Source: a virus. From it: DNA of 27,935 bases. Position 1 is the stretch's first letter. Each line of letters begins with the position of its first letter. The notes under the pieces are model-generated. The model was not told where the DNA came from. It searched no databases and saw only the letters and a list, made by a program, of their open reading frames with translations. The translations under genes and the position numbers were made by a program. The stretch lies in UHGV virus genome UHGV-0119398; one strand, 5' to 3'. Of this stretch, positions 50 to 14,056 are shown one piece after another.

Positions 50-1099
50 TTATGCAACCTCTGCCGCCATATTGTCGCCAACATACAGCGATAACGGATT
101 AAGGGTTACAGCTTGTTCAAGGTGGTCAGGAGCAAAGTGTGCATACTTCATTGTTTCTCGAATATTGGCATGCCCGAGAATTTTCTGCAGTACCAGTATA
201 TTCCCGCCGTTCATCATAAAATGCGCACCAAAAGTATGACGCAAAACGTGCGTCTTCTGCCCTTCCGTCAATTCAATATTCGTTAGTTTGAGCATCTTCT
301 TAAACTCCTGATAGCAGGGTTTAAACATTCTGCCTTGACGTACGGACAACTCGTCGTACAGCCATTTAGGAATAGGAACTGTGCGATTCTTCTTACCTTT
401 GGTTTTGGTGAACGTCAGTTTATATGGAGAAAGTTGAGGGCGGGTCAATCTCTCCGCTTCCCCCCATCGAGCGCCGGTTGCAAGGCACACCTTAACAATC
501 ATGGTGAGGTCTTCTTTGCCGTATTGCTCGCAGGCTCGAAACAGCTCCGGGAACTGAGACAAAGTTAGCCAGGACATTTCTTTCTCAGCCTCTTTGAATA
601 CTCGGATCCCATCAAGTGGATTGGGTAGGCTCCACTCCCCTAACCGGCGGAGCTCATTAAACACTGCTTCTAGGTATTGTTGTTCGCGATTGACGGTTAT
701 AGGTTTGGCGATCCATTTCGAGGGGTCTTTATGATAACCGTTGTCTATTTCACCACGTAATCGACGGTCACGATAATGAGCCCAGTCTTTCGCGGTAAGG
801 CGAGATGCAATCGGGTCACCAAGCCCATTACATACGATTTGAAGCTTTGCTAACCTCGACTTACTGGCGACTAACGCTTGACCGTGCAAATTGTGCCAAA
901 GCTGAATAATCTCGCTTAAGCGTCGGCGGTCTTCTTTCTTGCCGAGCCACGGCTTATCTTCACTCTCGCTTTTGGTAAATGCTTCAAATGCCTCGGCCTC
1001 ACCTTTGGTATTGAATTGCCGACGTATACGCCGCCCTTCTCGACCATTTGGATAGAGTTCACACAACCATTTTCCACTTTTTTGTTTACTTACAGTCAT
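50..1099 (-). CDS. int: Tyrosine integrase (P2 Int-like)
   Basis: 349-aa ORF; strong resemblance to P2 Int as I recall it, including LATGARWGEA and the C-terminal HVLRHTFGAHFMMNGGNILVLQKILGHANIRETMKYAHF recombinase motif block. Confidence 0.93.
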   Translation of the reverse strand: MTVSKQKSGKWLCELYPNGREGRRIRRQFNTKGEAEAFEAFTKSESEDKPWLGKKEDRRRLSEIIQLWHNLHGQALVASKSRLAKLQIVCNGLGDPIASRLTAKDWAHYRDRRLRGEIDNGYHKDPSKWIAKPITVNREQQYLEAVFNELRRLGEWSLPNPLDGIRVFKEAEKEMSWLTLSQFPELFRACEQYGKEDLTMIVKVCLATGARWGEAERLTRPQLSPYKLTFTKTKGKKNRTVPIPKWLYDELSVRQGRMFKPCYQEFKKMLKLTNIELTEGQKTHVLRHTFGAHFMMNGGNILVLQKILGHANIRETMKYAHFAPDHLEQAVTLNPLSLYVGDNMAAEVA

Positions 1100-4371: not shown

Positions 4372-6594
4372 TTGGCTGTTCAATTCGCTTATCCGTGGAA
4401 CGTCCCACGGTCGGCAATCTCCAGCCCATACCTTACTTATGAGCAACAGCATCGCCGCGACCGTATGTTCGCGGCTTTGCTGCATGCAAAAAAGGTGCTT
4501 TCTCTCCAGCCCGACTGCGTGCGGTTAGATGTTTATCGCACTGCTGCGGTGCTGGAACAAAATCAGGGTAGTCAACGAGCCAATGCATTTTTAATCAGCT
4601 TCTGCAAAAAGGCATTGCCGCGTCTTGAACTGGTCGCAAAAAAATACGAATGCGCTGGTATCAACAGCAAGGTATCAACCGCTGTTTTTGGAAGTCATTT
4701 TGATACTCAGCAAATGCAATATCTGTCGTCACGCATGGTTAATATGGTCGCCCGATATAACCGTCTCCCGGACATGTCGCGCGCTGATGTTGACCTGTTG
4801 GCCGCTGATATTGCTAATTTCATTCGTGGTGAACTTGCCAACATTAATGACCACGGATTCGGCGAGCTTAAAACGCTGTACACCTGGTATATTCGTGCTG
4901 GCTTTATTTCCCTCCAATTCAACGTTATCCCACCACATTGGGAGCGGGTTGAAAAAAAATATGTCGGTGCGGATGAAATCGCACCGGCTATCGCCAAAAT
5001 GTTTAACGATGGGTGGTGGCGCGGTCTTTTGCGCCGTGTAGCAGCTACGTGGCGCGAACACCTGCAAATTGCAGTCGGCAACGTCAGTAAGAAAAAAAAC
5101 ACTTACGCGAGTAAAAACTGCGTGACTGACTGGCGTGAACAAAAGCGCCGCACTCGTGAATTTCTCAAAGGTCTGGATCTCGAAGACGAAGACGGCAACC
5201 GTATCAGCCTAATTGAAAAATATGATGGCTCAGTTGCTAACCCTGCGATTCGCCGCTGTGAGCTCATGACCCGCATTCGTGGGTTTGAAAACATCTGTAA
5301 TGAGCTCGGTTATGTCGGTGAGTTTTACACTCTAACCGCGCCGTCAAAATATCACGCCACGACTAAAGCCGGTTACCGTAACAGCAAATGGAGCGGTGCC
5401 AGCCCGGCTGACACGCAAAACTATCTAACCGGTATCTGGGCGCGTATCCGTGCCAAACTACATCGGGAAAATGTCCGTATTTTCGGTATTCGTGTCGCCG
5501 AGCCCCATCACGACGGCACTCCACACTGGCACATGCTGATGTTCATGCTGCCGGAAGATGTTGAATATGTTCGCTCCATCGTCCGTAAATACGCATGGAA
5601 AGAAGACCGCCACGAACTGAAAAGCGATAAATCCCAAAAAGCACGTTTCCACGCGGAGTCCATTGACCCGGAGAAAGGCAGCGCAACCGGCTATGTTGCT
5701 AAATACATTTCAAAAAATATCGACGGTTATGCTCTCGATGGTGAAACCGATGATGAAAGCGGTGAGCTGCTGAAAGAGACAGCCCCCGCCGTTTCAGCAT
5801 GGGCTGCGCGCTGGCACATCCGTCAGTTTCAGTTTATTGGTGGTGCGCCGGTGACGGTTTACCGTGAGTTGCGTCGCCTCGCTGATACCGAAACCGCGCA
5901 CGGTCTGAGCGTTGAGTTTGCCGCCGTCCATGATGCCGCCGACGCTGGTGACTGGGCTGGTTATGTTAATGCTCAGGGTGGGCCGTTTGTCCGTCGCGAT
6001 GATTTACAGGTGCGCACACTGTATGAACCGCGTACCGAGCTTAATCAGTACGGTGAGGAAACGGTATGTATTAAGGGGGTCTACGATTCCTCCATAGGTG
6101 CAGGAAGCCCGATTTTAACCCGGCTCACTCAGTGGAAGATTGTTCCGAAGCGTGCTGTTGATTTGGCCGTTGACCTTCAGGACGGCAAAGCCGTCCCTCG
6201 GAGTTCTGTCAATAACTGTACGGGAAGCGAAAGCGATCCACCGATACTGGATTTAACAAAACCACTGAGTCGGCGTGAAAGACGTGAATTGACCAACCGA
6301 CTCAGGAAGCAAAAGCCAGCAGCACGGCGAAAATTCATCCACGGAACGGATGAGCAAAACGCAGCTATAGCTAAAACTATCGATGAGATACATCTGACAA
6401 CCGGCATTAATATCAGCCGGGGCGAAGCCCTGCACCTGATGGCCGGTGGTAAAAGTTGTTTTGATGGTAAATGGCTACGCGGAACGGCCAAAGGAGAAAT
6501 ATTTTCCGCAGCACCATCGCATGAGGCTAAAGCTCGGAAAATCCTTAATCGTGTTGCGGCGATGGCTGAAGCATCAAAACCAATACATGAGTAA
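4372..6594 (+). CDS. A: Replication initiation protein gpA (HUH rolling-circle endonuclease)
   Basis: 740 aa; HUH motif VAEPHHDGTPHWHMLMF and catalytic tyrosine motif GYVAKYISKNIDGY as in P2 gpA; apparent TTG start at 4372 with G-rich SD, coupled to the upstream stop. Confidence 0.9.
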   Translation: MAVQFAYPWNVPRSAISSPYLTYEQQHRRDRMFAALLHAKKVLSLQPDCVRLDVYRTAAVLEQNQGSQRANAFLISFCKKALPRLELVAKKYECAGINSKVSTAVFGSHFDTQQMQYLSSRMVNMVARYNRLPDMSRADVDLLAADIANFIRGELANINDHGFGELKTLYTWYIRAGFISLQFNVIPPHWERVEKKYVGADEIAPAIAKMFNDGWWRGLLRRVAATWREHLQIAVGNVSKKKNTYASKNCVTDWREQKRRTREFLKGLDLEDEDGNRISLIEKYDGSVANPAIRRCELMTRIRGFENICNELGYVGEFYTLTAPSKYHATTKAGYRNSKWSGASPADTQNYLTGIWARIRAKLHRENVRIFGIRVAEPHHDGTPHWHMLMFMLPEDVEYVRSIVRKYAWKEDRHELKSDKSQKARFHAESIDPEKGSATGYVAKYISKNIDGYALDGETDDESGELLKETAPAVSAWAARWHIRQFQFIGGAPVTVYRELRRLADTETAHGLSVEFAAVHDAADAGDWAGYVNAQGGPFVRRDDLQVRTLYEPRTELNQYGEETVCIKGVYDSSIGAGSPILTRLTQWKIVPKRAVDLAVDLQDGKAVPRSSVNNCTGSESDPPILDLTKPLSRRERRELTNRLRKQKPAARRKFIHGTDEQNAAIAKTIDEIHLTTGINISRGEALHLMAGGKSCFDGKWLRGTAKGEIFSAAPSHEAKARKILNRVAAMAEASKPIHE

Positions 6595-6707: not shown

Positions 6708-6890
6708 ATGGTTGGCGAACATTTCAGCCGAACGCAGCAAAAGTGGGCTTGTGTGCAATTTATTGCCGAGGTATCTCTGATTGCAAACTGCAAGCCATCA
6801 GACTTAAAGCTCGCGCTCACTCTCATTGCAGACCTAGCAAACAGCGAAAATAACGAAACCGAAGATGATAATTTTTATAAGGCTGATTAG
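6708..6890 (+). CDS. SOS-controlled small protein, possibly the N-terminal portion of a Tum-like antirepressor
   Basis: 60 aa; GGGAGGG SD; directly downstream of the LexA box; ends in TAG, in frame with the DinI-like ORF that follows one codon later. Confidence 0.55.
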   Translation: MVGEHFSRTQQKWACVQFIAEVSLIANCKPSDLKLALTLIADLANSENNETEDDNFYKAD

Positions 6891-6893
6891 ATT

Positions 6894-7127
6894 ATGAGAA
6901 TCAATATCACGTTGGATAAAGAGCAAAAAATTAGTCAGGCAACGTTGGATGCGCTTGAGGCTGAGCTGTACCGCAATCTGCAACCTATTTACCCAAAGAC
7001 CGCTATCCGCATTCGCAAGGGCTCCGCAAATGGCGTTGAGCTAAGCGGTTTGAAACTGGACGAAGATAAAAAACGAGTAATGGAAATCATGCAGCAGGTA
7101 TGGGAGGACGATAGCTGGTTGCATTAA
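6894..7127 (+). CDS. DinI-family protein (Tum C-terminal domain-like)
   Basis: 77 aa; MRINITLDKEQKISQATLDALEAEL...KKRVMEIMQQVWEDDSW aligns with E. coli DinI as I recall it. Confidence 0.8.
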   Translation: MRINITLDKEQKISQATLDALEAELYRNLQPIYPKTAIRIRKGSANGVELSGLKLDEDKKRVMEIMQQVWEDDSWLH

Positions 7128-7223
7128 CAAACGCCGCCGGTGCTGAAACTCGCTTTCAGTGCTGGCGGGGTTGAACAACGAGCCCCGCGAGGCGTTAGCC
7201 TGCCCCTTAGAGACTGCCCCCAA

Positions 7224-7249
7224 CCGGCACGATTAAAGCCGGTTTTTTT
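7224..7249 (+). terminator. Candidate rho-independent terminator ending the SOS operon
   Basis: CCGGC-loop-GCCGG followed by a T7 run; weak 5-bp stem. A larger hairpin without a U-tract lies at 7134-7168. Confidence 0.4.
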
Positions 7250-7409
7250 ATGCCATTTTTCCGCGATTTCTCCGCTTTTTAGCCGTGCATGCAACAGGTG
7301 CATGGTTTTGCATGCGTCGTGGTTGCCAGTTCTGGCCGTGCGCCGTCAGTGCTGGCGCGGATCAAGAGTGGTCATGCAACTGCATTAAAACCGACCCATA
7401 AAGCGGGCA

Positions 7410-7428
7410 GGCGTGGCGGGGAAAGCAT
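7410..7428 (+). other. cos cohesive-end sequence (19 nt) GGCGTGGCGGGGAAAGCAT
   Basis: Matches my recollection of the P2/186 cohesive end (P2: GGCGAGGCGGGGAAAGCAC); lies between the early/SOS region and the distal end of portal gene Q, the expected place and orientation. Confidence 0.6.
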
Positions 7429-7570
7429 TGCGCGCCAGCGGTGGTGCGTAATATTAAAAATTATCGTCTGAGCGCGTCGTGATGGCGCTGTCGTGATTGT
7501 TGTCGGTTCGTTGGTGGTCTGGTGTGGACGTGCTCGCGTGGCGCGTCTGAGGCGTGATGGTGGCGGGGTA

Positions 7571-7595
7571 TGAAAAAGCCGCCATGCTGGCGGCT
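7571..7595 (-). terminator. Rho-independent terminator of the Q-P late operon
   Basis: On the minus strand, AGCCGCC-AGCAT-GGCGGCT followed by TTTTT, 10 nt downstream of the Q stop. Confidence 0.55.
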
Positions 7596-7604
7596 TGAGG
7601 GGGA

Positions 7605-8627
7605 TTATTCCGGGTTGTCGAGGGTGTACTCTTTGAACCTGATGACCTCCATGCCGAGCCAGTCGTTTACCTCCCTGAACCTGTCCTGCAGGGGTGACAG
7701 CTCGTTACGTACAAAGACCTTTGCCACTTTCTCAACGTCACCGAGTGAGCCGATATTCTCGGGCTTGCCGCCCATGAGCTGGAACGGAACGCGGTGCGCG
7801 TCCATCAGGTCGGCGGCACTGGCTTTCTTGATGTTGAAAAAGTCATCCTTTGTGGCGACCTCGCTCAGTGGCACGATTTTGATGCCGTCAGGTTTTCCGC
7901 CGGGAGCGTAGAAAAACAGGTTCTTAAAGTTGCCGAGCCCTTTTGAGTTGCGCATCGCCTCGCGCAGCGATTCGACGTCGGTCGCGCTCTGCGCCGGGTC
8001 GGTCACATACATGATGTAACCCGCGTGCGCGCCGTTCTGGTAATACTTGCGGCGGAACAGCGTCGCGGATTCATTCAGCCAGGCGGAATTAAGCGCGCTG
8101 AGATATTCGGGCAGGCCATAAATCTCCTGATTAATGTCGGGCTCCAGCAGGTGAAACACGGTGTCAGGTGCGAACTCATGCGGTAGAGTGAAGTTTTCCA
8201 CAAACCAGAAAATCGAATCGTCGACCCCGCGCCGGGTGTATTTGGCCGGTGAGGCCAGCAGCTTGATTAACTGCCCGGTGACGCTGTGGCGCTGCTCAAG
8301 AAAGGCGTTGCCGAATACCAGATAGTCGAGCGCAAAGCGGCTGAAATCCTGACGGGACAGCAACGGGTGCGGAATGTAGGTGCTCGCGAGCACGTTGCGC
8401 TTAACGTAAATCGGTGAGCTGTGATGTACAGCAGAGCGCAGGCTCTTTGCCAGCCCGGAGAAGCTGACCGGCGGCTCGTACCATTTGCCGTTACTGATGC
8501 ACTCGACGTAATCCAGAATGTCACGCTTATCGAGTACCGGCACCGGCTCGCCGAAGGTGAACGCCTCCATTTTTTGCGGGGCGCTGGCGGTCGTGGCGAC
8601 TGTTTTGCGTGGCTTGCGCTTGCTCAT
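7605..8627 (-). CDS. Q: Portal protein (gpQ)
   Basis: 340 aa; EAFTFGEPVPVLDKRDILDYVEC...WYEPPVSF...GLAKSLRSAVHHSSP block as in P2 Q; start overlaps the upstream gene's stop (ATGA). Confidence 0.92.
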   Translation of the reverse strand: MSKRKPRKTVATTASAPQKMEAFTFGEPVPVLDKRDILDYVECISNGKWYEPPVSFSGLAKSLRSAVHHSSPIYVKRNVLASTYIPHPLLSRQDFSRFALDYLVFGNAFLEQRHSVTGQLIKLLASPAKYTRRGVDDSIFWFVENFTLPHEFAPDTVFHLLEPDINQEIYGLPEYLSALNSAWLNESATLFRRKYYQNGAHAGYIMYVTDPAQSATDVESLREAMRNSKGLGNFKNLFFYAPGGKPDGIKIVPLSEVATKDDFFNIKKASAADLMDAHRVPFQLMGGKPENIGSLGDVEKVAKVFVRNELSPLQDRFREVNDWLGMEVIRFKEYTLDNPE

Positions 8628-9370
8628 GCTGCCACCTCGCCCGCTGCAACAGCGAAAGACCAGTCGCAGCCAAAAAGCAGACGATAATCATCGTCGCTGT
8701 ATTCGCGTTTAATTTCCTCAGGCGCAAAGAGATTGCACCCGTTCTGGCATGCTGCATCCAGAGTGACCGACTGACGCCAGACACCATCCGTGCAAAATAC
8801 GCTGTCGCCGGTATTGATTAGCGGTGACGGTCGGTGATTGCGGAACGTGCCATTCCATACCCGGAAAGCGTCATGATTATCAGAGGGAGAGGTGAACATC
8901 TTCAGGCTGTGGCGCTTATGACAGGTGATACCCGCCGCGACTTTTGCCGCATTTCGCGGGTTACTGAACCACCCGAACTCATCAAGGTAGACGTTACCCG
9001 CCAGTGCGGCGCAATGGGATTCCTCGCCGACAAAGCTGATAACCGCCCCGTCGTCGAGCTGCAGGCTGTGGCCGTTGCTCGTCAGGCGGACACCGACGCG
9101 CGCTGAAAGGTTATTCATGTACATCAGCGCCACGCGCGCATGCTCAACGGTGTGAGCAAACCAGACCTGATTATCGCCCGTTGTCAGCGCATCGAGCAGC
9201 GCCTCGCGACTAAAGAGCTGCGTTGCGCCAATCTGGCGCGATTTGGTGATGCTGCGGTCGATATTGAGTTTCCCGACACGCAACCATGTTGCCTGATAGT
9301 CAAAGCTGTCATTGTGCAGAATATCGGCCATTGCCTGAATCTGGCTTTGTGAGAAAACGTTATTTTTCAT
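8624..9370 (-). CDS. Terminase large-subunit ATPase-domain paralogue (ATPase-only, no HTH or nuclease region)
   Basis: 248 aa; homologous to the ATPase core of the adjacent gpP (shared KSRQIGAT, Walker-B-like VYLDEFGW, GVWRQSVTLDAA, LFAPEEIKREYSDDDYRLLFGCDW); translationally coupled to P upstream and Q downstream. Confidence 0.8.
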   Translation of the reverse strand: MKNNVFSQSQIQAMADILHNDSFDYQATWLRVGKLNIDRSITKSRQIGATQLFSREALLDALTTGDNQVWFAHTVEHARVALMYMNNLSARVGVRLTSNGHSLQLDDGAVISFVGEESHCAALAGNVYLDEFGWFSNPRNAAKVAAGITCHKRHSLKMFTSPSDNHDAFRVWNGTFRNHRPSPLINTGDSVFCTDGVWRQSVTLDAACQNGCNLFAPEEIKREYSDDDYRLLFGCDWSFAVAAGEVAA

Positions 9371-11139
9371 TAATTAAACTCCAGAATAGATTTAGGCTGC
9401 ATGCCGCTACCGGCGGAAAGCGGTTCGTTTAACAGGGCGTGCATGGTCGCCCATGCGATATCGGCGTGACTGGCTTCCTCGGTGCGGCTGGCCTCGTAGG
9501 TGGCGCTGCGCCCACTGCTGGTCATGGTTTTGCGGATGGACATAAACGACTGCGTGACGTCTGTTGCCCCGGCGTCGTACTCCAGACAGCCCCGTCGAAT
9601 GGTGTCTTTTGCCTTGAGCACCATCGCGGTTTTCATTTCGGGCGTGTAACGGATGCCGCGTGCCGCCGGGTAGAATGAGCGCACCAACTGGAATACGCCG
9701 AGGCCGAGGCCGGTTGCGTCAATGCCGATGTATTCGACGTTGTATTTCTCGGTCAGTTTGCGAATGCCCTCGGCCTGAGCGGCAAAGTCCATGCCTTTCC
9801 ACTGGTGGCGCTCCAGCATACGGAACTTGCCACCCGAGACCACCGGCGGCGCGAGCACGACGCACCCGGCACTGTCGCCGGTGTGTGACGGGTCGTAGCC
9901 AATCCAGACAGGCCGCGAGCCGAACGGATGGTCGGCGAAAGGGGCAAAATCCTCCCATTCTTCCATCACGTCGACCATGCAGCGCTGTAGCTCCTCGAAC
10001 GGGAATACCGACGCTTTATCGTCGACAAACTCGCACATAAACAGGTTCTTAAAGTCCTCATCACTGTTTTCGCGTTTGAGCTGGTCGAGGTCGAACAGGG
10101 TGCAGCCACCGGTAAGGGCGTCCTCAATAGTGACAATCTGCCGCCACTGGCCATCGTCGCAGAGCTGACCACCGGCGAGCGCGCTGTGGCTGATGTCGAT
10201 TTCGATGCGGTCGGCAATACGGCTGCGCCCCTTGTTGAACAGCTCGCCAGACCAGAAGGGGTAAGCGCCGTGCGCCAGTGTTGATGGTGTCGAAAAGTAG
10301 GTCGAGCGCAGGTGCTTTTGCGAGGCCATGCCCGACGCGACTTTGCGCAGCTTCTGAAAATTCGGGATCCAGAATATTTCATCGACATACAGGTCGCCGT
10401 TATGGCTCTGCGCGGTGTTGGAATTGGTACCGAGAAAAATCAGCTTTGCGCCGTTGTTGCCGATGACAATCGGGTCACCGGTCAGGTCGACGTCGACCAG
10501 TCGCGCAAACTGGATGATGTATTCACGGAACACGTAAGCCTGCGTTTTACTGGCCGACAGAAATATCTGGTTGTGGCCGGTCTTGAGCGCGCGCAGCAGC
10601 GCCTCGCGGGAGAAATAGAACGTCGCGCCAATCTGACGGGATTTGAGAATGTCGCGAATACGGTGCGCCAGTCCTGCGCGGTACCACTGCAACTGGTACT
10701 CGAAAGACTGTTCGAAAAATAGTTCCTCCAGTTTTTCGATAGCCTCGTCGCTGAAAAAGTTCTTTTTCGGCTTCTTACGCTCGCCCTTGTTGCGGTTGGC
10801 GACATTGGGGTTAAGGTCGACCTCGTTACCGGTCTGACTGTAGCGGTTAACGCGCGCCAGTCGCTCAATCTGCCGCCCGAGCAGGTCAATCTCTTTGAAG
10901 TCGCCCCCTGACTTTTGCGGCTTGGCGATGAGCTGAATCAGGCGCGCCTCAAGGCTGCTTTCAACGCGGGAAATGGGTGCGATGCCGTCCCAGCCGTCGC
11001 GCTGCTTCCAGCTCTGCACGGTCGGGCGCTTGACCTGCAGCATGTCGGCAATCTGTGGCACGGAAAAGCCCTGCCAGTAAAGCAGCGATGCCTGCCGTCG
11101 CGGGTCATGCAACAAGGTTGTATCGGTGGAAATGGTCAT
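9370..11139 (-). CDS. P: Terminase large subunit (gpP)
   Basis: 589 aa; N-terminal HTH (LLYWQGFSVPQIADMLQVKRPTVQSWKQR), ATPase motifs KSRQIGAT and LYVDEIFW, C-terminal nuclease half; length matches P2 gpP. Confidence 0.92.
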   Translation of the reverse strand: MTISTDTTLLHDPRRQASLLYWQGFSVPQIADMLQVKRPTVQSWKQRDGWDGIAPISRVESSLEARLIQLIAKPQKSGGDFKEIDLLGRQIERLARVNRYSQTGNEVDLNPNVANRNKGERKKPKKNFFSDEAIEKLEELFFEQSFEYQLQWYRAGLAHRIRDILKSRQIGATFYFSREALLRALKTGHNQIFLSASKTQAYVFREYIIQFARLVDVDLTGDPIVIGNNGAKLIFLGTNSNTAQSHNGDLYVDEIFWIPNFQKLRKVASGMASQKHLRSTYFSTPSTLAHGAYPFWSGELFNKGRSRIADRIEIDISHSALAGGQLCDDGQWRQIVTIEDALTGGCTLFDLDQLKRENSDEDFKNLFMCEFVDDKASVFPFEELQRCMVDVMEEWEDFAPFADHPFGSRPVWIGYDPSHTGDSAGCVVLAPPVVSGGKFRMLERHQWKGMDFAAQAEGIRKLTEKYNVEYIGIDATGLGLGVFQLVRSFYPAARGIRYTPEMKTAMVLKAKDTIRRGCLEYDAGATDVTQSFMSIRKTMTSSGRSATYEASRTEEASHADIAWATMHALLNEPLSAGSGMQPKSILEFN

Positions 11140-13306: not shown

Positions 13307-14056
13307 ATGACGAGCCCCGCACAGCGTCACATGATGCGGGTCTCGGCCTCTCAAGCCGCGCAGCGGGAACAAGCCCCGCTGCGCCACGCAACCGCCTACG
13401 AGCAGATGCTGGTAAAGCTGGCCGATGACCGCCGCACGTTAAAAACCATCCGTTCAAACGAACTGAAAGCCGCGAAAAAGCGCGAGCTGCTGCCGTTCTA
13501 CGCGCCGTGGGTCGCCGGTGTGCTGGCTGATGGCCGTGGCGCACAGGATGACATTCTGATGACCGTCATGCTCTGGCGACTTGATGCCGGTGACGTTGCT
13601 GGCGCGCTGGAGATTGCGCCCTACGCGCTGAAATACGGCCTCACCTCTGACCATCGCCGCACCACGCCTTACATGCTGGTTGAGGAGGTGGCGCTTGCCG
13701 CGCTGCGCCTGCGCGATGCCGGTGAGCCTGTCGACCTCGCATTACTGCTAACCGCCCTCAGCCTGACCGACGGCGCTGACGTTCCCGATATGGTGCGCGC
13801 CCGTCTGCATAAGGTGACCGGTCTGACCCTGCGCGACGCCGGTCAGAACGCCGAAGCGCTGGCGCAGTTTCAGCGCGCGATGCAGCTCGACCGCAATGCC
13901 GGTGTGCGCAAAGAGATTGAACGACTGGAGCGCGCATTGAAGCCAAAGCCAGAGGCAGTACCCCGTAAAACGACTAAACCGCGCACGCGCAAACCTGCCA
14001 CCAAACCGGCGGCAAAGCGCGGGCGTCCACCAAAGGCGGTAAAAACCGCCGGTTAA
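13307..14056 (+). CDS. M: Terminase small subunit (gpM)
   Basis: Start set at ATG 13307 (MTSPAQRHMMRVSA...), 249 aa, matching P2 gpM; the ORF-track start at 13211 overlaps N. Confidence 0.9.
   Translation: MTSPAQRHMMRVSASQAAQREQAPLRHATAYEQMLVKLADDRRTLKTIRSNELKAAKKRELLPFYAPWVAGVLADGRGAQDDILMTVMLWRLDAGDVAGALEIAPYALKYGLTSDHRRTTPYMLVEEVALAALRLRDAGEPVDLALLLTALSLTDGADVPDMVRARLHKVTGLTLRDAGQNAEALAQFQRAMQLDRNAGVRKEIERLERALKPKPEAVPRKTTKPRTRKPATKPAAKRGRPPKAVKTAG

Follow-up and report, generated by a model that had tools for sequence, protein, structure and literature searches.

A 186-type cos region with positionally conserved TGCAT repeats, candidate terminase recognition elements, in a P2/186-family prophage

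The segment at 7286–7438 of the viral genome UHGV-0119398, of which a stretch of 27,935 nucleotides (the window) was analysed here, is probably a complete 186-type cos region in which the pentamer TGCAT acts as the specificity element and is read by a single phage-encoded protein, most likely the small terminase subunit (TerS). As a packaging site the element is already known and, judged from its sequence, it is one more copy of the 186-type cos. What the present comparison adds is a positional rule that appears to hold across the family, together with a concerted change of the pentamer between lineages, and both make docking of terminase on the repeats directly testable.

By similarity the whole window is a phage-186-like prophage of the P2/186 family. 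It is 92–94% identical to Eganvirus-type phages across 85–94% of 25 kb, and its relatives of this type include Escherichia phage Midge, Klebsiella phage RCIP0057 and Erwinia phage EtG. The left part of the window carries an integrase gene (50–1099, minus strand) and a replication gene (4372–6594), the latter lying to the left of a DinI-like gene (6894–7127) with a match to PF06183. A Rho-independent terminator at 7222–7249 (plus strand; GC stem and T7 run) aligns with 't95b; p95 transcript terminator' of 186; it ends the early/accessory transcription unit and forms the left limit of the cos region. On the other side of cos, a perfect 9-bp inverted repeat at 7573–7596 (minus strand) aligns to 186 'tW' and is the equivalent terminator of the portal/terminase operon. 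This operon contains the ORFs for the portal protein (7605–8627, minus strand; homologue of P2 gpQ and 186 Orf2, named 'portal' in matching phage records) and the large terminase subunit TerL (9370–11139, minus strand; P2 gpP homologue, terminase large/ATPase subunit in matching records), which would be the subunit that makes the cos nicks. Past TerL the gene order is scaffold, capsid and then TerS (13307–14056, plus strand), a homologue of P2 gpM and 186 R with a match to PF05944 (Phage_term_smal, E=1.6e-39) and with 92% identity to 186 R and 75% to P2 gpM. The first-ATG ORF of TerS (13211) runs into the capsid gene, so the true start is probably at 13307. The layout is that of P2/186-type phages, with cos between the early/accessory genes and the portal gene and with divergent portal–TerL and scaffold–capsid–TerS operons nearby. 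The earlier note had placed the repeats on the early-gene side of cos, which agrees with the DinI-like and replication genes to the left and the minus-strand portal gene to the right.

The 19-nucleotide sequence GGCGTGGCGGGGAAAGCAT is present as a single copy in the window, at 7410–7428 on the plus strand, and 100 dinucleotide-preserving shuffles gave no match to it with three or fewer mismatches. The same note had taken it for a 186/P2 cohesive end, and the call is right: the sequence is identical to the misc_recomb cos feature at bases 1–19 of phage 186 (U32222), annotated as 'cos; cohesive end; top strand cut at 5' end and bottom strand cut at 3' end'. By blastn of 7100–7620, the right ends of the linear 186, EtG and SEN1 records were found to align exactly to 7409, the base just before the 19-mer. 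The top strand would be expected to be nicked 5' of 7410 and the bottom strand after 7428, a stagger that leaves 5' overhangs. The end is of the G+C-rich 19-nt P2/186 form, GGCG(A/T)GGCGGGGAAAGCA(C/T). The P2 and P4 version, GGCGAGGCGGGGAAAGCAC, differs at two bases from that of 186 and the window, and is also quoted in PMC3931495.

To the left of the 19-mer, and counted from its first base (7410), TGCAT was found at 7286, 7299, 7309 and 7381 (−124, −111, −101 and −29), and the inverted form ATGCA at 7289 and 7374 (−121 and −36). We name these copies R1 to R5. R1 (7286–7293, plus strand) consists of TGCAT at 7286–7290 and an overlapping inverted ATGCA at 7289–7293; R2 (7299–7303, plus strand) is followed at exactly 10 bp by R3 (7309–7313, plus strand), which comes after a T4 tract. 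A spacer of about 60 bp (7314–7373) separates R3 from the dyad ATGCA-AC-TGCAT (7374–7385, plus strand), made up of R4 (ATGCA, 7374–7378) and R5 (TGCAT, 7381–7385). The TGCATG motifs quoted in the earlier note are located where it had put them (GTGCATGCAACAGGTGCATGG at 7285–7305, TTTGCATGCG at 7307–7316 and GTCATGCAACTGCAT at 7371–7385); its repeat unit, a TGCATGCAAC-like decamer, was not upheld, the conserved unit being the pentamer TGCAT at fixed distances. Inside the window the cluster is marginal. Six copies of TGCAT on either strand fall within 7286–7385 against 2.1 per kb window-wide, 20 of 300 dinucleotide-preserving shuffles reach at least six copies in some 105-bp span (scan statistic), and the number of TGCATG copies in the window (24) does not exceed the 26 expected. 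The case for the repeats therefore rests on their positions across genomes, and it is position-specific conservation in other genomes, not the window by itself, that argues for more than chance.

To determine these positions, viral contigs were scanned for GGCGWGGCGGGGAAAGCAY, which gave 120 loci, and 72 non-redundant loci were retained after removal of arms more than 80% identical. Of these 72, 68 have same-strand TGCAT at −29, 59 have it at −101±1 and 59 at −111±1; the background, measured over 1.2 Mb of these loci, is 1.36 copies per kb per strand. As in lambda cosB, several short repeats lie by the nicking site at conserved positions (59–68 of 72 loci). R1 is the least fixed repeat, with TGCAT at −124 in 19 loci and at −121/−120 in 21, and R4 (ATGCA at −36) is found in 48 and absent from P2. 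The dominant spacing in the distal cluster is 10 bp (72 instances). Canonical P2 (AF063097) has TGCAT at −123, −111, −101 and −29, and canonical P4 (NC_001609) at −124, −111, −101 and −29. Four satellite-like loci lacking a portal gene keep two or three distal copies as well as R5. P4 shares essentially cos alone with its helpers (PMC9122126), and the repeats kept there thus argue for a role in packaging.

The profile of mean pairwise identity across the same loci separates the parts of the region. Identity is 0.27 in the unrelated flank far left of the repeats, 0.51 in the R2–R3 block, 0.34 in the R3–R4 spacer, 0.82 in the core from −37 to −1, 0.95 in the 19-mer and 0.85 from +19 to +28. The spacer has evidently drifted in sequence almost to background, while its length is still held to ±1 bp. 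Information content is high from −37 to −1, a stretch that includes the left half of the core in the window, TAAAACCGACCCATAAAGCGGGCA (7386–7409, plus strand), and remains high to about +28 through the right half, TGCGCGCCAG (7429–7438, plus strand), the natural right boundary of cos. The window fits the −37 to +28 consensus of the 72 loci and has the conserved core of about 55 bp. In PMC3931495, PMC5694545 and PMC5247547 the '55-bp core' of the P2/P4 cos is credited to Ziermann & Calendar 1990, and a packaging signal common to P2 and P4 is described in PMC9122126.

No conservation was seen left of about −125 or right of about +28 among the 72 loci. P4-like satellites and phages bearing cargo between cos and the portal gene diverge right after TGCGCGC, and the divergence of the latter defines the right edge of cos; from the places where both groups diverge, the natural limits of cos would lie at about −125 and +28. 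Direct repeats, CGTCTGAG..GTGATGG, were also found on the portal side at 7465–7487 and 7544–7565. They are conserved where the portal gene abuts cos, and were considered as a part of cos and rejected: satellites and cargo-bearing phages are without them, which places them outside the minimal cos. Unrelated cargo between cos and portal was observed in several relatives (L025, L031, L039, L057, L075, L088, L118 and L123:947–2249), for instance a TIR-domain gene that E. coli phage 500465-1 carries there; this cos-adjacent site is a known hotspot for cargo (PMC5694545, PMC9122126). The deposited genome of Yersinia phage vB_YenM_31.17 (NC_070918; L124:2244–2600) has its cos sequence split by a duplication of about 125 bp, which is probably an assembly artefact at the cohesive ends.

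More distant phages, with small terminases only 35–55% identical, were then compared. HP1, Mannheimia 1152AP and KS14 were left out, since either the cos region or the genome layout differs too much for a comparison. In the distant lineages one word is shared by the proximal sites (−29, with a further site at −36 to −38) and the distal sites (−100/−101 and −110/−111). The −111 site, the position of R2, is held in P2, P4 and phages of Ralstonia, Klebsiella, Pseudomonas and Shewanella, and the pentamer found there is specific to the lineage: YGCAT in Ralstonia RsoM1USA, E. coli 500465-1 and Yersinia 31.17, TGCAC/TGCAA in Klebsiella Kp4874-2 and ST16-OXA48phi5.4, YGCAG in phiCTX and YGCGT in Shewanella M16-3. 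A second scan, for cos variants, added 86 non-redundant loci to give 158 in all, and revealed further pentamer classes including CCGAC. In 127 of the 158 loci the 4-mer at −28 to −25 is repeated at −100±2 or −110±2, and 93 have it at both. Control positions repeat it in 6–13 of the 158, never at both, and when words were permuted among the loci recurrence was 72±3.5 with a maximum of 86. In the GCAC class, GCAC is present at R3 in 11 of 12 loci and GCAT in none of the 12. Since the words at the distal and proximal sites change together, the same specificity determinant would read both. It would moreover be phage-encoded, because Klebsiella phages bear either TGCAT (RCIP0057) or TGCAC (Kp4874-2) and phages of E. 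coli and Ralstonia share TGCAT. The concerted change points to one phage-encoded reader, most likely the small terminase.

The earlier suggestion that the repeats are candidate recognition elements for the terminase small subunit thus gains considerable support as far as recognition is concerned: the copies hold fixed positions in P2, 186, P4 and the 72 non-redundant loci, P4-like satellites keep them while sharing little else with their helpers, and distal and proximal copies change together in distant lineages. Docking of terminase on the repeats is a plausible reading, and by analogy with other phages TerS, the gpM homologue, would be the natural candidate for the reader. An AlphaFold2 (AF2) model of TerS is all-helical, with a pLDDT of 71.5 and weak generic TPR-like matches, and is of medium confidence, resting on a shallow alignment; the homologue search yielded no relative below 92% identity. 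No canonical DNA-binding domain was recognised in this medium-confidence model, no match to solved small terminases was obtained with it, and a PDB sequence search with TerS found nothing relevant. The C-terminus is predicted to be a disordered basic tail with an AT-hook-like KRGRPPK, and this tail and the N-terminal Arg-rich helices are plausible DNA-binding parts.

Three other readings of the repeats were weighed. In one, which we consider improbable, the repeats are packaging signals read by TerL (the gpP homologue) or by a terminase–portal complex, and TerS has a non-specific or regulatory part. It is favoured by concerted change and retention in satellites, which need only a helper-encoded reader, and by the absence of a canonical DNA-binding domain from the TerS model. 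Co-variation favours it too, since TerL and portal follow motif class no less closely than TerS does: class-discriminating positions number 4 of 249 residues in TerS (R26, R43, M85 and H168), 17 of 589 in TerL and 7 of 340 in portal. The motif classes are essentially clades, and all three proteins track them equally well. The attempt to single out TerS by co-variation was therefore abandoned, TerL and portal carrying proportionally as many such positions, and R26, R43, M85 and H168 are no evidence for TerS. Phage proteins that read the packaging site as small subunits are lambda gpNu1, SPP1 G1P, P22 gp3 and the TerS of HK97. It is the small subunit that recognises the site in every cos or pac phage studied (PMC9611059, PMC7617512), which stands against a TerL or portal reader. 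In addition, the model of TerS is not strong enough to rule out DNA binding, for which the Arg-rich helices and the KRGRPPK tail are plausible. We prefer TerS as the reader.

We consider it highly improbable that the repeats, rather than being sequence-specific sites for terminase, are bound by an architectural protein of the host or work through intrinsic DNA shape, by bending or by forming a cruciform in the supercoiled monomeric circles on which P2-type terminases act. Fixed spacing with free spacer sequence, the T4/A4 tracts and the palindromic cores (TGCA, GCATGC) would suit such a role, as would a GC-rich dyad in mid-spacer in some lineages, represented in the window by CCAGTTCTGG at 7326–7335 and CAGTGCTG(GCGCGG) at 7347–7361. 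However, the dyad is present in about 15–17 of the 72 loci only (as CAGnnCTG at −63/−64 in 17) and P2 is without it, so that it was rejected as a universal element; neither the window nor any of the 72 loci has the IHF consensus WATCARNNNNTTR between −140 and +30; and the pentamer varies within one host genus, as in Klebsiella, while TGCAT is the same in phages of hosts as different as E. coli and Ralstonia. We give hardly any credence to the third reading, that the repeats are not packaging elements at all but leftovers of common ancestry or promoter or terminator signals of accessory genes next to cos. What speaks for it, apart from the marginal clustering in the window, is that in P2 transcription of the old-tin mRNA begins about 150 bp to the left of cos, on the opposite strand (AF063097 33424–33426; L257), so that the old-tin promoter and the R1 region of the cos arm overlap, and that R1'/R2 could form a small hairpin followed by a T run. 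The hairpin was considered as a terminator and dismissed as a by-product of the palindromic cores, and no promoter-like site was found in 6800–7700. The neighbouring genes differ wholly, since the window has a DinI-like gene, P2 has old, P4 has psu and other loci carry defence cargo, yet the distances from the repeats to the cut stay constant, and the pentamers persist and change in concert where their surroundings have drifted to background identity.

With TerS as the probable reader, we propose the following model. After induction and replication, terminase would nick on either side of 7410–7428 to produce 19-nt 5' cohesive ends. The conserved core (about 7373–7438) would supply the cleavage site and its immediate context, and TGCAT at −29 (R5) and at −101, −111 and −124 (R3, R2 and R1) would be the specificity element, taking the role of lambda cosB. 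All copies of TGCAT would be read by one phage-encoded protein, most likely an oligomer of the TerS encoded at 13307–14056. R2 and R3 would present themselves about one helical turn apart and R3 and R5 about seven turns apart, with a spacer of fixed length and free sequence between. The R3–R5 and R2–R5 distances are 72 bp and 82 bp, which at about 10.3 bp per turn place the sites on the same helix face and suggest wrapping or looping. The DNA is probably wrapped or looped in this way, bringing distal and proximal copies into one protein assembly, and this assembly would set TerL in place over the nicking site, which lies 29 bp downstream from R5.

The cos region of the window is closest to those of 186, P2 and P4. 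Its flanks are 89–95% identical to 186-type phages, it occupies the same position between early/accessory genes and portal, and its TGCAT layout is that of P2 and P4. It shows no substantive difference from the 186 cos, whereas P2 lacks the R4 and GC dyad present in the window. The lambda cos (cosQ-cosN-cosB) is similar in having a nicking site with short, helically phased repeats on one side, which presumably anchor the small terminase, and possibly in a specificity that co-evolves with the phage. In contrast, the window sequence is unrelated to that of lambda, the overhang is 19 nt versus 12 nt, and the repeats are split into a proximal site and a distal cluster 72–95 bp away; lambda has gpNu1 R-sites and an IHF site, and the window has no IHF consensus. 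Unlike lambda cosB, the repeats of the window are at the end of the chromosome remote from the terminase and head genes, and the lambda TerS is a winged-helix protein whereas that of the window belongs to PF05944 and is predicted to be all-helical. The substrate of P2-type terminases is a monomeric circle, and that of lambda is a concatemer. Packaging polarity of P2/186 DNA was not found in the accessible literature. The cos of phiCTX (NC_003278), a distant member of the family, shares the architecture seen here, with a homologous G-rich cohesive end after repeats at −29/−38 and −100/−110, and differs in its YGCAG pentamer, its 21-nt overhang and an attP adjoining cos. Its record annotates 'R4, R5, R6 repeats' across cos, so repeats at a P2-family cos have been noticed before; no paper linking TGCAT repeats with cos was found in the open-access literature.

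Extended to all phages of the P2 family with a PF05944 TerS, the model becomes a more tentative one, which we think rather doubtful as a whole: cos would be recognised at three points, with one pentamer 29 bp from the nick and two or three at 101–124 bp, held in helical phase and written in a code that can be rewritten. In this family-wide reading the code has been rewritten several times, as TGCAT, TGCAC, YGCAG, YGCGT and CCGAC. If true, about 95 bp of DNA would be wrapped round an oligomer of an all-helical, TPR-like TerS unlike any solved one, a mode of recognition not described for terminases, and one that predicts which helper packages which satellite. To our knowledge, recognition of cos by P2-family terminases has never been worked out structurally. 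Fixed positions with a lineage-specific pentamer offer a concrete hypothesis that can be tested by mutation, and may also provide a sequence rule with which to judge helper–satellite compatibility and to design P2/P4 cosmid delivery vectors. For the window itself, cos would be the origin of packaging for a 186-like prophage that is apparently intact, and the prophage and any P4-like satellite present in its cell should therefore be packageable.

Two further features were observed around the repeats. An imperfect 19-bp hairpin is located at 7130–7172, directly after the DinI-like gene, and the region of its 3' arm (7151–7175, CGCTTTCAGTGCTGGCGGGGTTGAA) recurs at 80% identity in the cos spacer at 7341–7365. 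Paired GATC (Dam) sites, CGCATGATC..AAGGATC, come after R3 in the 500465-1-like lineage (L138, L220, L223, L237 and similar loci), at about −97 to −80 relative to cos, against a single GATC in the window, at 7360.
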